Assembly (NCBI GenBank): GCA_964291415.2
Contig: OZ219917.1
Location: forward strand, 480,001-544,000
Direction: 5' to 3'
DNA from: Alphaproteobacteria bacterium
GTDB lineage: Bacteria > Pseudomonadota > Alphaproteobacteria > SP197
DNA: 64,000 bases
Of the stretch, positions 60,000 to 62,122 are shown piece after piece (the stretch's first letter is position 1; every line of letters starts with the position of its first letter). Made by a program: the position numbers and the translations under genes. The notes under the pieces are model-generated. The model searched no databases, was not told the DNA's origin, and saw only the letters and a program-made list of their open reading frames with translations.

Positions 60000-60338
60000 G
60001 ATGGCTCCCTGCCTTGGGGCGAGATCCGTCCCCTGTCTGCCGCCATGCGGCGCGAACTTCGCCACGCCTGATCCTGCGTGTTGAGCGAAAACGTCGGGAA
60101 AGACGGATCCTCTCACCGCACGACCGGAACAGCGAGTGTGCCTCACCGGTTCCTCGGCTCGCGGATACGCCGTGCGATGGCATGGATCGGATGGCAGGCA
60201 GGACGTCGTCGCCTTCGAGTCCGGCGCCGGGAACCGGTGATCGGCGATGTGATGACGATGCGCAAGGCGGCAGGGCCCCGGCCGACAACGCCCGGTGGCT
60301 TCCTTTGGGAATTGTATACGAAACTTGACAGAATAGAC

Positions 60339-60367
60339 TTGACATCCAGTGGTGTTATCGATATGAA
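60339..60367 (+). promoter_or_regulatory. putative sigma70 promoter for tnpB
   Basis: TTGACA-N17-TATGAA in the AT-rich left end. Confidence 0.5.
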
Positions 60368-60408
60368 TTCGTTTGTTAAATCAGTGTTCTCAACACCGGA
60401 GTCCCCGC

Positions 60409-61608
60409 ATGTCGTCCTCTGTCACCTATCGACAGATCACCTTTCGCCTGCTGCCCGAGAAACGCAGCACCTGGCGGCGGCTGGAGGCCATGCTCGACGC
60501 TGAGCGCTGTCTCTACAACGCGGCGCTGGAAGAACGGATCGACTGCTACCGGAAGACCGGCAAGTCACTCACCTACTTCGATCAGGCGAAGTCCCTGACC
60601 GTGTGCCGCAAGACCCTGCCGGACATGGCGGCGGTGCCGGTGGCCATTCAGCGTGGGACGCTCAAGCGCCTCGATCATGCCTTCAAGGGTTTCTTCCAGC
60701 GGGTGAAGCAGGGTGGGGCCGGGTTCCCCCGGTTCCAGGGACGCCGGCACTTCAACAGCCTTTCCGTGGTCTCCGGCGTCAGGGTCGAGGGCAATCGCCT
60801 GCGCATCCCCGGCCTGGGCTGGCTGACCATCCGCCGCCGGGGCGGCAATCCCTGGCCGCAGGGCACGCCGGTGAGTGCGGTCCTCAAGCGCGAGGAGGGA
60901 CGCTGGAAGGCGGTGGTATGCCATGCGGTGTCGCTGCCGGAATCCGACGACAACGGCCATGCGGTCGGCGTGGACATGAATGCGGGCCAGGTGGCGACCT
61001 CGGACGGGGAGATCCTGCGCCTGGAGAGGAGCCGTCGTCTCAAGGCTCGCGCCCGGCGCTACGCCAAGCAACTGGCGCGGCAGCGCCGTGGCAGCAGGCG
61101 GCGGGAGAAGACGCGGCGGCGTCTGGCGAAGACCACCCGGCACATGGCCATGAAGCGCCATGACTGGCAGCACCACGTCAGCCGCCGGTTGGCGGATGCG
61201 GCGGGGACGGTGGTGGTCGAGGATCTGAAGGTCCGCAACATGACCCGCAGCGCCGGGGGCACGAAGGAGGAGCCGGGACGCCACGTGCGCTCCAAGGCGG
61301 GTCTCAACCGCGTCATCCTGGAGACGGGCTGGTCGTCGTTCCGGAGAATGCTGGACTACAAGGCTTGCCGCGTCATCGCGGTGAACCCGGCCTACAGCAG
61401 TCAAACCTGTGCAGCGTGCGGCGTCACAAGCGCCCAATCACGCAGGACGCGGGACCTGTTTCAATGCGTGGCGTGCGGCCATGCGGATCACGCCGACCTC
61501 AATGCAGCGGCGAACATTCTGGCCTCGGGGACTGAGGCATCTGCGCGGGGAGGTTGCCGGGTTGCCGGGCCTGCGAACCGCGAAATCGATCGGAAGATGG
61601 CAGCATGA
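60409..61608 (+). CDS. tnpB: RNA-guided endonuclease TnpB
   Basis: N-terminal YNAAL/GFPRF; RuvC-I GVDMN, RuvC-II VVEDL, Zn finger CAACG...CVACG, RuvC-III HADLNAA. The D-E-D triad is intact. Confidence 0.95.
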   Translation: MSSSVTYRQITFRLLPEKRSTWRRLEAMLDAERCLYNAALEERIDCYRKTGKSLTYFDQAKSLTVCRKTLPDMAAVPVAIQRGTLKRLDHAFKGFFQRVKQGGAGFPRFQGRRHFNSLSVVSGVRVEGNRLRIPGLGWLTIRRRGGNPWPQGTPVSAVLKREEGRWKAVVCHAVSLPESDDNGHAVGVDMNAGQVATSDGEILRLERSRRLKARARRYAKQLARQRRGSRRREKTRRRLAKTTRHMAMKRHDWQHHVSRRLADAAGTVVVEDLKVRNMTRSAGGTKEEPGRHVRSKAGLNRVILETGWSSFRRMLDYKACRVIAVNPAYSSQTCAACGVTSAQSRRTRDLFQCVACGHADHADLNAAANILASGTEASARGGCRVAGPANREIDRKMAA

Positions 61609-61655
61609 CGCTGTCAACTTCTCGATATAAGTCCCCTTCCTTTCCTGTACCCGTG
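61522..61655 (+). ncRNA. predicted omegaRNA (reRNA) scaffold plus guide, overlapping the tnpB 3' end
   Basis: Stem GCCTCG/TGAGGC with loop GGGAC complementary to the terminal GTCCC (61631-61635); stems CGCGG/CCGCG and ATCGA..GAAG.TGGCAGC/GCTGTCA.CTTC.TCGAT; guide would start at 61636. 5' end uncertain. Confidence 0.7.
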
Positions 61656-61729
61656 CGGGATGAACCACACGGACACATCGGATCCGACATGGCATTGGAA
61701 CTGACACGTCCTGTGCCGGAGCGCACACG

Positions 61730-62122
61730 GTGACGGCCAGACGCCCGGCCCGCGAGCTGGCTGCCGAGCTCTGGCGCCTGTTCGATGCCGGGCGATTTCG
61801 CGACGCCCTGCCGTTGCTCGCGGAGGACTTCGAAGCGCACTGGCCCAATACCCGGGAGCGCATCCGCGGCCGGGAGAACTTCATCGCCCTGAACGAGAAC
61901 TACCCGGGTCACTCGCGCTGCACGGTCCGGCGGATCGAGGAATGCGCGGATGGCGTGGTGACGGTGACCGAAATCAGCACCCAAGTCGGCGATGACCGGT
62001 TCACGTTGTTCGCGGTGTCGTTCTTCCATGTGCGGGATGGTCGAATCGCTGCCGCCGAGGAGTACTTCAGCGAAAACGGGCCGCCGCCGTTCGACCGCTC
62101 CGCCTGGGCGGAACGCTACTGA
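61730..62122 (+). CDS. SnoaL/NTF2-like protein
   Basis: LLAEDFEAHWPNTRERIRGRENF, NENYPG, SFFHVRDGRI, EYF. Confidence 0.85.
   Translation: MTARRPARELAAELWRLFDAGRFRDALPLLAEDFEAHWPNTRERIRGRENFIALNENYPGHSRCTVRRIEECADGVVTVTEISTQVGDDRFTLFAVSFFHVRDGRIAAAEEYFSENGPPPFDRSAWAERY

Follow-up and report, generated by a model that had tools for sequence, protein, structure and literature searches.

The window, the whole stretch of 64,000 nucleotides that was analysed, contained a 1329-bp element at positions 60307-61635, with tnpB as its sole gene and 25-nt inverted ends that agreed at 18/25 positions. The features of the element and its flanks were assigned as follows.

60298, + strand: candidate TAM, the G directly 5' of the left duplication and at -9 from the left tip (site counts against controls)
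60299-60306, no strand: left copy of the 8-bp target-site duplication CTTCCTTT (direct reading; single copy of the region at the empty site of relatives)
60307-60331, + strand: left terminal inverted repeat GGGAATTGTATACGAAACTTGACAG (IS1595/ISNwi1-like tip GGGAATT.TAT; homology among genomic copies begins exactly here)
60332-60408, + strand: leader from the left repeat to the tnpB start (conserved among copies)
60409-61608, + strand: tnpB, 399 aa (Pfam; alignment; PDB chain matches; dN/dS)
61521-61635, + strand: putative omegaRNA scaffold, overlapping the last 29 tnpB codons (RNAalifold, per-sequence folds, arm stability, dS)
61611-61635, - strand: right terminal inverted repeat CTGTCAACTTCTCGATATAAGTCCC (homology among copies ends exactly here)
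61636-61643, no strand: right copy of the 8-bp target-site duplication CTTCCTTT (direct reading; genomic copies)
61636-61655, + strand: predicted guide-encoding flank, the duplication together with about 12 nt of the right flank (drawn from TnpB biology and from where the conserved G stands; applies if omegaRNA read-out continues past the right tip)

The duplication CTTCCTTT was exact over 8 bp and abutted both element tips. The repeat search of the window recovered the inverted ends as a 25-nt pair with 72% complementarity, a figure which alone was no better than that of many chance pairs there. On the basis of the tip-to-tip homology of genomic copies, the element boundaries were not due to chance. 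Four further full-length copies (92-97% identity) were detected in the same genome, and all aligned from tip to tip (query bases 9 to 1337/1338) and no further. Three of the four were flanked by duplications that differed from one another, AAAAAATG, ATCGACAA and AATCGGA(G) (7 or 8 bp), and the copy at C4:1339554 had none. The empty allele was present in two congeneric genomes, in which the flanks were joined without the element and one diverged copy of the 8-mer region stood ahead of CCTGTACCCGTGC. Sequencing-run data were taken throughout from Logan contigs, in which uncovered parts and small shares are uninformative; contigs from other runs diverged exactly past the right tip at 61635, and a contig of run X1 joined 60305 to 61639 with 13 other letters in between. 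An earlier note on this DNA had described imperfect inverted ends (18/25) beside an exact 8-bp direct repeat, and this was confirmed by the sequence, the repeat search and the copy boundaries; the further copies with other duplications and the empty allele, which it had named as checks, were both found. Short matches to the right end elsewhere in this genome (G000) and in G004, G012 and G019 were considered as mini-cassettes and rejected, as they were 5'-truncated remnants or a different MITE, without both ends. The motif TTGACA occurred in the left repeat (60325-60330) and again in the leader (60339-60344); despite these two motifs, the strict sigma-70/terminator scan of 60250-61750 returned neither a promoter nor a terminator.

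The frame at 60409-61608 was the only long ORF in the element with a Pfam identification (Cas12f1-like_TNB, PF07282, 5.8e-19; OrfB_IS605, PF01385, 5.3e-14). In an alignment with seven relatives of 39-100% identity, the RuvC residues D189, E271 and D363 and the C4 zinc finger (C334, C337, C353 and C356) were invariant, and the dN/dS of tnpB was about 0.2-0.5. The D-E-D triad, the C4 zinc finger, the length of approximately 400 aa and the OrfB_IS605/TNB domains, by which a TnpB/OMEGA nuclease is recognised, were thus all present. The PDB TnpB chains 8h1j and 8bf8 matched residues 8-374 (E about 2e-32), and the closest natural solved structures were chains 8h1j and 8bf8/8exa, which we take to be ISDra2 TnpB. 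These features indicated that the catalytic site of TnpB is intact and that its gene evolves under purifying selection, and the ORFs, Pfam and alignment agreed with the earlier description of tnpB as the only gene, with an intact RuvC D-E-D and zinc finger. A role of TnpB as the transposase or as a TldR-like dead regulator was rejected, since the catalytic triad was intact and the element was multi-copy and mobile.

Across genomes, ends of this type bounded 88 of 104 homologous loci; the right tip lay 10-35 nt past the tnpB stop and, in most copies, 24-31 nt past it. The end-finder accepted only pairs tipped GG/CC whose right tip lay close to the stop; a version without tip constraints gave many spurious pairs. 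Among the 88 loci, a duplication of at least 7/8 was found at 54 (46 unique sites, from about 21 assemblies) and was decayed or mis-called at 34, while the tnpB frame was open at 77. The TnpB lineage of the sampled loci ranged over 39-100% identity in MAGs labelled as several phyla and was solo throughout. Homologues down to about 40% identity kept the same tips, so that boundaries lying elsewhere, which the earlier note would have counted against its reading, were not the pattern.

The tips of the cassettes and of their partner elements presumably belong to the ISNwi1-like group, with the tip consensus ggnnatTAT. The GG(G) tips and the 8-bp duplications were shared with the IS1595 family, as was a partner transposase with Zn_ribbon_IS1595 and DDE_Tnp_IS1595 domains. 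In this family 8-bp duplications and many members with passenger genes are described (PMC8101967, part covered). The cassette differed from the family in having no internal transposase and in the right end being co-opted, as predicted below, into an RNA hairpin; the transposase was encoded by a separate element elsewhere in this genome. The cassette is therefore considered an IS1595 derivative and not an insertion sequence proper, because it encodes TnpB alone.

The separate element, G000:C2:46358-49518, was autonomous, 3161 bp long and bounded by ends that agreed with each other at 23/25, and its 327-aa protein matched DDE_Tnp_IS1595 (1.2e-36) and Zn_ribbon_IS1595 (2.5e-6). The ends of this partner agreed with cassette left ends at 20-23/25; the left end of the window cassette reached 20/25, and the best single match, 23/25 as counted by eye, was between the right end of the partner and the left end of the copy at C2:1201494. 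In the scripted comparison of 36 distinct left ends, agreement with autonomous IS1595 ends was 15-22/25, and the cassette end variants followed the variants of the autonomous elements. Counting against this, the right end of the window cassette agreed with the nearest autonomous end at 18/25 only. Ends of IS1595 transposase loci were located by a tip-motif scan over wide flanks; flanks of 1.5 kb were too short. Most IS1595 transposase loci carried passenger genes.

The alternative that the locus is an ordinary tnpB-only element of the IS200/IS605 type (IS1341 group) or a relative of IS607, with an HUH or serine TnpA to move it and with ends and a duplication that are incidental, was weighed against these data. 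It draws on the close match to the natural structures 8h1j and 8bf8/8exa (E about 2e-32) and on the abundance of tnpB-only elements in that family (PMC3627910, part covered). Members such as ISDra2 and the Geobacillus ISs also share the nuclease family of about 400 aa, and their structured RNA, which lies at the tnpB 3' end and reaches the right end, has a putative counterpart in the cassette. However, IS200/IS605 and IS607 elements have neither inverted ends nor duplications, as stated in the part of a 2026 review covered here (PMC13565253), and IS200/IS605 elements are moved by HUH TnpA, whereas the cassettes have tips that match IS1595 elements, and distinct 7-8-bp duplications at three of the four other own-genome copies and at 46 unique sites elsewhere. 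Y1/HUH TnpA (PF01797) was not found in the 100% complete own genome, while control genomes gave matches. Membership of the IS1341 group was rejected on the inverted ends, the variable duplications and the missing PF01797, IS607 membership is contradicted by the ends and duplications, and the alternative as a whole is regarded as very improbable. The earlier note had named linkage to an HUH TnpA as a refuting finding, and none appeared; an autonomous element with similar ends, for which it proposed to search, was located. Given the copies with varied duplications, the near-matching ends of the partner and the lack of an HUH TnpA, mobilisation of the cassette in trans by a DDE transposase is well supported, although inferred, and the earlier proposal of an IS1595-type non-autonomous DDE cassette gains support to the same extent. 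Together with the mechanism proposed below, the locus is very probably a non-autonomous IS1595 mobile insertion cassette, the cargo of which would be the TnpB gene and a guide-RNA scaffold in its 3' end.

Mobile insertion cassettes and MITEs, for example MIC231 of Bacillus cereus, are likewise transposase-less, bear the ends of a resident IS family and duplications, and are moved in trans. The present cassettes differ from these in their cargo, a conserved and selected nuclease-RNA module, and in belonging to an old and diversified lineage instead of being short-lived deletion derivatives.

Within the sampled loci, tnpB and an IS1595 transposase never occurred in one element: no transposase was matched beside tnpB at 110 tnpB loci, and no tnpB was matched within IS1595 elements in three IS1595 locus sets. 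At the genome level, the IS1595 transposase was present in 11/13 genomes with this TnpB versus 13/48 without it, in a set of kin genomes that are therefore not independent. At E<=1e-30, no IS1595 transposase was found in the cassette-bearing genomes G013 (one contig, 100% complete) and G016. It could be argued from the missing partner in G013 that the cassettes are decaying relics of autonomous IS1595 elements that once carried both tnpB and the transposase, with TnpB as a functionless passenger; some copies were truncated, interrupted or with stops, and DDE elements with tnpB in cis were described by Altae-Tran et al. 2023 (PMC10691335, part covered). The cis-linked form was absent from the 110 tnpB loci and the IS1595 locus sets, however, and the 77/88 open frames, the invariant catalytic residues and the dN/dS of about 0.2-0.5 do not fit a functionless passenger. 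The lineage had moreover diversified to about 40% identity while still solo and multi-copy, and the relic explanation is considered improbable.

An arrangement of this kind has been reported before. In the part of Altae-Tran et al. 2023 (PNAS) covered here, DDE-associated TnpB branches DDE-1 to DDE-6 with inverted ends were described, together with solo TnpBs with the same ends that were interpreted as trans-mobilised (PMC10691335). Shared with those branches are the flanking of TnpB by inverted terminal repeats, the closeness of the tnpB 3' end to the transposon end, and solo tnpB between ends resembling those of transposase-bearing elements. The novelty implied by the earlier note is thus not upheld for the kind. 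Those branches include tnpB and transposase in cis, whereas the sampled cassettes never do, and the IS1595 elements that partner the cassettes lack TnpB and carry other passenger genes. IS1595 and ISXO2 had no occurrence in the main text of PMC10691335 as far as covered, where IS630 was the sole family named; ISL2, IS630 and IS1031 are listed as TnpB-associated DDE families in the covered part of the 2026 review (PMC13565253). A literature search for TnpB with IS1595 or ISXO2 returned no paper on such cassettes, as judged from listings and abstracts.

The 3' end of tnpB was examined as an RNA. The putative omegaRNA has predicted stems at 61521-61538 and between 61544-61548 and 61578-61582, followed by a predicted terminal hairpin at 61585-61626, with the stop codon (61606-61608) in its loop, and by a single-stranded tip at 61627-61635. 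The right inverted repeat begins 2 nt past the stop and supplies the 3' arm of this hairpin. Across 37 relatives, RNAalifold predicted 20 pairs, of which 8 showed compensatory changes, and the terminal hairpin recurred in the per-sequence folds. With cognate arms it was the more stable, at -17.9 kcal/mol against -11.8 kcal/mol with non-cognate arms, and the cognate pairing was favoured in 32/40; dS was reduced in tnpB codons 331-399 among divergent pairs. Folded alone, the 3'-terminal 140 nt of the window copy were not more stable than shuffles (z -1.47), and Rfam gave no match at E<=1 for the 3' RNA region. An RNA-library contig crossed the right tip, which is weak evidence, and run X4 covered 24/30 bins of the element, in contigs that cannot prove a transcript, its ends or its strand. 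The covariation suggests that the right inverted end also serves as the 3' hairpin of a putative RNA; the hairpin could alternatively be a subterminal repeat at the DNA level, in a region that is also coding.

The insertion sites showed a further signature. A G at -9 from the left tip was found at 43/46 unique insertion sites of related cassettes, compared to 21/66 ends of 33 TnpB-less IS1595 elements (Fisher 2e-11); these controls were of other subfamilies, only 33 elements, and chosen by perfect or near-perfect duplications. By end, the control counts were 7/33 and 14/33, with no bias to either end, and the mirror C at +9 occurred at 22/46 cassette sites only. The AT-rich edges of the duplication were common to the controls and are therefore attributed to the transposase, whereas the G was absent from the pattern of the controls and is not. 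If the guide consists of the duplication and the right flank, the G at -9 sits at the TAM position, and it may be a candidate recognition motif of the nuclease. A conserved G beside a variable 8-bp duplication had no mention in PMC10691335 as far as covered.

A different origin of the G was considered, in which the cassette is as described but the G reflects a target preference of transposition, with the role of TnpB unrelated or unknown. The right end differs from the left, and with the 3'-OH of the right tip attacking the top strand just 3' of the G, an asymmetric transpososome could favour G; in line with this, cassette ends were less symmetric (14-24/25) than autonomous ends of relatives (22-25/25). 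The C at the mirror position was in mild excess (22/46 vs about 30% background), and both ends had G in 5/22 metagenome controls, a sign that the enzyme may have a weak palindromic preference for G-N8-C. Yet the autonomous elements, presumably using the same transposases, had G at only 21/66 ends and without end bias, and the G was nearly fixed across subfamilies with very different right ends, including the 24/25 repeats of L092 and L098. Its position, moreover, is precisely the one required of a TAM if the guide derives from the flank. A target preference is accordingly judged unlikely, though it is the most serious of the rival explanations.

The mechanism proposed for the cassette has four steps. 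A resident IS1595 DDE transposase would bind the cassette ends and move the cassette in trans to AT-edged 8-bp targets. The tnpB transcript would then yield an omegaRNA whose last stem-loop is built of the final codons and the right inverted repeat and whose guide is read from the adjoining duplication and right flank. The TnpB-omegaRNA complex would recognise its own site when free of the element (left flank, one duplication copy, right flank), and the G that immediately precedes the duplication would act as a minimal TAM; an occupied site would escape cutting, because the right tip always places C at the TAM position. Finally, a cut of the empty or re-sealed donor site would lead to repair from the occupied sister copy, and G-adjacent cassettes would therefore be retained or copied and others lost. 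Such retention and copying would select the near-universal, left-only G. A cut-and-paste break already invites repair from the sister copy (PMC13565253, part covered), and the benefit of TnpB is arguable for this reason.

In IS200/IS605 elements restorative homing by TnpB-omegaRNA has the same proposed purpose, the cutting of the element-free site, but the 4-5-nt TAM there is the target site of the transposase, whereas in the cassette the duplication is variable and the candidate one-G TAM lies outside it. Fanzors in eukaryotic DDE transposons (Mariner/Tc1, hAT, MuDR and others) are likewise TnpB-family nucleases in transposons with TIRs and TSDs. The TAM of Fanzor elements includes the 5' duplication, and their scaffold contains the 3' one (PMC13565253, part covered); unlike these, the cassette duplication would have to join the guide, because it consists of 8 variable bases. 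In the strongest reading, which is put forward tentatively and as a serious possibility, this TnpB clade would reconcile RNA-guided homing with a near-untargeted DDE transposase, the duplication being the first part of the guide, a one-G TAM lying outside it and the right tip giving the protecting C. The clade would in that case be a hyperparasite of IS1595 elements, long-lived and obligately without a transposase, that pays its way by restoring or copying itself at G-adjacent sites, and the 399-aa protein a natural compact nuclease with a near-minimal TAM.

TnpB was for a long time associated with HUH and serine-recombinase transposons, which excise without a scar and so leave the nuclease a target, and the reason for which TnpB rides a cut-and-paste DDE element is still debated (PMC13565253, part covered). 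The present work adds a lineage that is solo in the sampled loci, with 39-100% identity and in MAGs labelled as several phyla, a right end that is predicted to form an RNA hairpin, and a G signature on the left only. If the one-letter TAM is true, such 399-aa enzymes are of interest for genome editing; if it is false, the finding is another example of the arrangement reported in 2023. The G at -9, on the left only and absent in TnpB-less relatives, makes the question of homing and TAM directly testable, and the lineage offers a clean natural test case, with many young copies at readable insertion sites and partner transposases in the same genomes.

The cassette was read in the window sequence, where an exact 8-bp duplication, imperfect 25-nt inverted ends and a tnpB gene between them were all found as the earlier note had described:

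60299-60306 and 61636-61643, target-site duplication CTTCCTTT, exact on both sides (window sequence)
60307-60331 and 61611-61635, 25-nt inverted ends, 18/25 complementary (repeat search of the window)
60409-61608, tnpB, 399 aa, the single ORF with a family assignment between the ends (Pfam)

The protein encoded at 60409-61608 was matched by Pfam to Cas12f1-like TNB (5.8e-19) and OrfB_IS605 (5.3e-14). Taken alone, the 72% inverted repeat of the ends scored no better than other chance pairs found in the window, so the test of the boundaries had to rest on other copies. By DNA search, four further full-length copies with 92-97% identity, one of them split by an insertion, were detected in the window's own genome (4.44 Mb, 5 contigs, among them C2, C4 and C1, on which the window occupies 480001-544000), as well as a left-end fragment of 399 bp and some shorter matches. 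The full-length matches spanned query base 9 to 1337 or 1338, thus the homology was bounded by the proposed tips and the 8-mer lay outside it. The copies were as follows:

C2:285595-286923, duplication AAAAAATG on either side
C2:84502-87624 (locus L019 2620-3744), duplication ATCGACAA on either side, interrupted
C2:1200166-1201494, duplication AATCGGA(G), 7 or 8 bp
C4:1339554-1340883, no duplication (left AATGCATG, right CATGAATA), 97% identity, open tnpB

The interruption was caused by a ~1.8-kb element near element position 1200, which carried an IS110-family transposase (Pfam DEDD_Tnp_IS110, Transposase_20). Three of the four other copies had their own duplication, and these distinct duplications, which the earlier note had suggested looking for, are the signature of staggered-cut insertion. 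The copy lacking a duplication may have arisen when two copies recombined. Additionally, a second TnpB outside the window (C1:387838-389019, homologue L041) was 40% identical and had the same tip type (22/25) with no recognisable duplication, which indicated that the tip type spans a deep TnpB clade. With a 3.3-kb query across the insertion, the two flanks were found to adjoin in several congeners. In two of them (G019 and G006) the left-flank homologue led directly to CCTGTACCCGTGC, and the site had a single diverged 8-mer region and lacked the element, in agreement with the expectation that an empty site should hold one 8-mer copy and not two. In a contig of sequencing run X1, 60305 was likewise linked to 61639 through 13 letters of other sequence. 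The intergenic DNA at the empty site was diverged, so a letter-perfect empty allele was not obtained.

The left repeat was then searched in the same genome with at most 7 mismatches, and 10 matches were obtained, two of which formed an inverted pair (C2:46358 and C2:49518) bounding a partner element of 3161 bp, whose own ends were 23/25 identical to each other. The partner ends matched the cassette left ends at 20-23/25 overall; the partner right end matched the copy at C2:1201494 at 23/25 (counted by eye), and the left end of the window copy matched the partner ends at 20/25. Judging from the tip consensus of that group, we take the partner and cassette ends to be ISNwi1-like. One protein of the partner, 327 aa long, matched DDE_Tnp_IS1595 (1.2e-36, profile 3-153 of 153) and Zn_ribbon_IS1595 (2.5e-6); the other product, a 464-aa passenger whose N-terminus is lipoprotein-like, matched nothing in Pfam. 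These two domains and 8-bp duplications are described for the IS1595 family (PMC8101967). A second IS1595 element (2468 bp) lay 9 bp from the partner and its transposase was 55% identical (locus L018, C2:46358-50580); in tblastn these two neighbours held the only IS1595 transposase genes of the genome. The Pfam search for Y1_Tnp (PF01797) was negative in this assembly, which is 100% complete, and positive in 6 of 14 control genomes. Given the matching partner ends, the only two IS1595 transposases and the lack of Y1_Tnp, the sole visible enzyme fitting the cassette ends is a DDE transposase of the IS1595 family supplied in trans, and the cassette has probably been moved by it. In this way, the earlier reading of a DDE-type cassette moved in trans gained support, as an inference, from the partner ends, the duplications and the lack of Y1_Tnp, and the autonomous element with matching ends that it called for was located at C2:46358-49518.

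The lineage was followed through 61 genomes (the window's own and 60 relatives) at E<=1e-40. TnpB matches were present in 13 of them, namely the window's own genome, 11 of the 22 other same-genus genomes, and G059, which belongs to a different family within the class. When species-representative genomes were scanned, 326 relatives were revealed, of which the best 80 loci belonged to MAGs labelled Alphaproteobacteria, Thalassobaculaceae, Paracoccaceae, Gammaproteobacteria, Pseudomonadales and Rhodothermales. GG...CC inverted ends (at least 14/25, right tip 10-35 nt past the tnpB stop) were identified in 88 of 104 evaluable loci; among these 88, the tnpB frame was open in 77, and a duplication of at least 7/8 was seen in 54, corresponding to 46 unique sites, spread over about 21 assemblies as judged by record names. 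The cassette left ends were 15-22/25 identical to ends of autonomous IS1595 elements, and the variant end blocks ...CTTGACTGAA..., ...ACAAAGAAAGGTTGACA... and ...AAAGTCAC... recurred in both alike. The IS1595 transposase was detected in 24 of the 61 genomes, 11/13 with TnpB versus 13/48 without, the counts coming from kin genomes and not being independent. No IS1595 transposase was found at E<=1e-30 in G013 (complete, one contig; three TnpB matches) and G016 (five matches), which either speaks against strict dependence or reflects stranded copies or a more distant partner. There was no transposase within 1.5-4 kb of any of 110 tnpB loci, and no tnpB in three sets of IS1595 loci (30, 24 and 80 records, the first two overlapping). 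In the samples examined, the TnpB lineage is always solo.

The 46 unique cassette sites were aligned in element orientation and counted as separate insertion events. At position -9 counted from the left tip (window 60298), which directly precedes the left copy of the duplication, G was present in 43/46 sites (C in 1, T in 2); the corresponding base beyond the right copy was C in just 22/46. Within the duplication, base 1 was never G, base 2 was A/T in all sites and base 7 was A/T in 41/46. Loci failing the duplication filter mostly had G at -9 too (by eye). As controls, 33 TnpB-less IS1595 elements with clear ends were used. Eleven were taken from relatives, with ends matching at 22/25 or more and a duplication of 6/8 or better, and 22 from metagenome contigs, with ends at 14/20 or more and a full 8/8 duplication (23/80 loci passed and one was dropped for a short flank). 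Their 66 ends, read towards the tip, had G at -8 in 5 and a non-A/T base at -7 in 7, giving AT-rich edges as in the cassettes, and G at -9 in 21 (left 7/33, right 14/33). Fisher tests gave 2e-11 for 43/46 versus 21/66 and 2e-6 for the left versus the right side of the cassettes, values which overstate independence as the elements are related. A tnpB-less MITE with IS1595 tips had G at -9 in 1/4 ends. Since the edges were common to the controls and the G bias was confined to the cassettes, the AT-rich edges belong to the transposase and the G to the TnpB-carrying elements, on one side only. With this insertion-site signature, the question of what TnpB does inside a DDE transposon can be put to the test.

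In IS200/IS605 elements, the sequence past the right end serves as the guide and the transposase target site ahead of the left end as the target-adjacent motif (TAM), and excision brings the two side by side (PMC13565253). For an element making 8-bp duplications, the element-free site would consist of the left flank, one duplication copy and the right flank. Were the guide read from the right tip, it would comprise the duplication and the right flank, so the TAM would have to lie directly 5' of the duplication, at position -9, where the G sits. In the occupied site the guide sequence would be preceded by the final C of the tip, by which self could be told from target. A one-letter TAM (G), possibly with context, would permit cleavage of empty or re-sealed sites, in a restorative or homing manner; cassettes next to G would be retained or copied on moving and others lost, and G would become enriched among standing insertions. 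This TAM and homing reading is tentative, falling slightly short of an even chance. The main rival, in which transposition itself prefers its targets asymmetrically and so accounts for the G, is rather unlikely, because autonomous IS1595 elements had no G bias and cassettes with nearly perfect inverted repeats still had it. In Fanzors, the TAM includes the 5' duplication and the scaffold includes the 3' duplication (PMC13565253), a geometry which differs from that proposed here and is unworkable with the eight variable bases of the cassette.

For the nuclease, D189, E271, D363 and four cysteines were invariant in seven sequences with 39-100% identity, and the top natural PDB matches were the TnpB chains 8h1j and 8bf8/8ex9/8exa (E about 2e-32, residues 8-374), presumably ISDra2 TnpB. 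The dN/dS was 0.17-0.50 in codons 1-330 (36 pairs of close copies). In more divergent pairs dS was lower in codons 331-399 (for example 0.11 versus 0.29 in L020/L024), as expected if an RNA overlaps the tnpB 3' end. The last ~130 nt of the element were strongly conserved in DNA across subfamilies, and RNAalifold on 37 sequences predicted 20 pairs; compensatory double changes were seen at 8 pairs, including one in the stem 61521-61538 (9/37 sequences), two in the stem 61544-61548/61578-61582 (6 and 2 sequences) and three in the inner stem (17, 8 and 16 sequences). Rfam gave no match for this 3' region, and the fold of the window copy had z = -1.47. In most subfamilies the final ~45 nt folded into a hairpin with the last codons as 5' arm, the stop codon in the loop and the right inverted repeat as 3' arm, leaving ~9 tip bases single-stranded. 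Arms of the same element averaged -17.9 kcal/mol versus -11.8 for 892 non-cognate pairs from different subfamilies, and cognate arms beat the non-cognate mean in 32/40; the hairpin could equally be a subterminal repeat at the DNA level and not an RNA feature. Contigs of the RNA-library (metatranscriptome) run X4 covered 24/30 bins, although contigs are no proof of a transcript and DNA was possibly in the library. A 523-nt contig of this run started at 61258, crossed the tip at 61635 and continued for 145 nt into the flank of another copy, a flank starting AAAAGGAG; this would fit read-through into that copy's guide region.

TnpB-only elements have long been described without inverted ends or duplications, as in passages of PMC3627910. 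Altae-Tran et al. 2023 reported six large DDE-associated TnpB branches, all with inverted terminal repeats and with the tnpB 3' end usually at most 250 bp from the element end, and IS630 is the only family named in its main text (PMC10691335); 'IS1595' and 'ISXO2' are absent from that main text (PNAS 2023), and the branch lists in its supplements may name the family. Solo TnpBs bounded by matching ends are interpreted in that paper as mobilised in trans. ISL2, IS630 and IS1031 are named in a 2026 review (PMC13565253). Our full-text literature search returned nothing on TnpB with IS1595 (judged by title/abstract) or with ISXO2. The tnpB cassette is thus confirmed, its kind is already known, and the case is a further well-documented member, which stands out by a partner in the same genome, the lack of a cis-linked form in the samples, a right end that may double as an RNA hairpin, and the G signature at its insertion sites.

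Also observed in this genome, outside the window, was a family of MITEs whose tips are of the IS1595 type and whose 8-bp duplications are imperfect:

C4:1169275-1169572 and C2:344481-344778, 298-bp copies
C4:883416-883589 and C4:560976-561142, ~174-bp copies, without a 69-bp stretch

In the 298-bp copies, the 69-bp stretch lay between a 17-nt direct repeat and was 90-93% identical to window 61521-61588, the structured 3' RNA region. At 61521 and 61584, RNA-library contigs had loose ends, and these corresponded to the sequence of this IS1595-tipped MITE. The 298-bp MITE could be a solo carrier of the omegaRNA core or a chimera.
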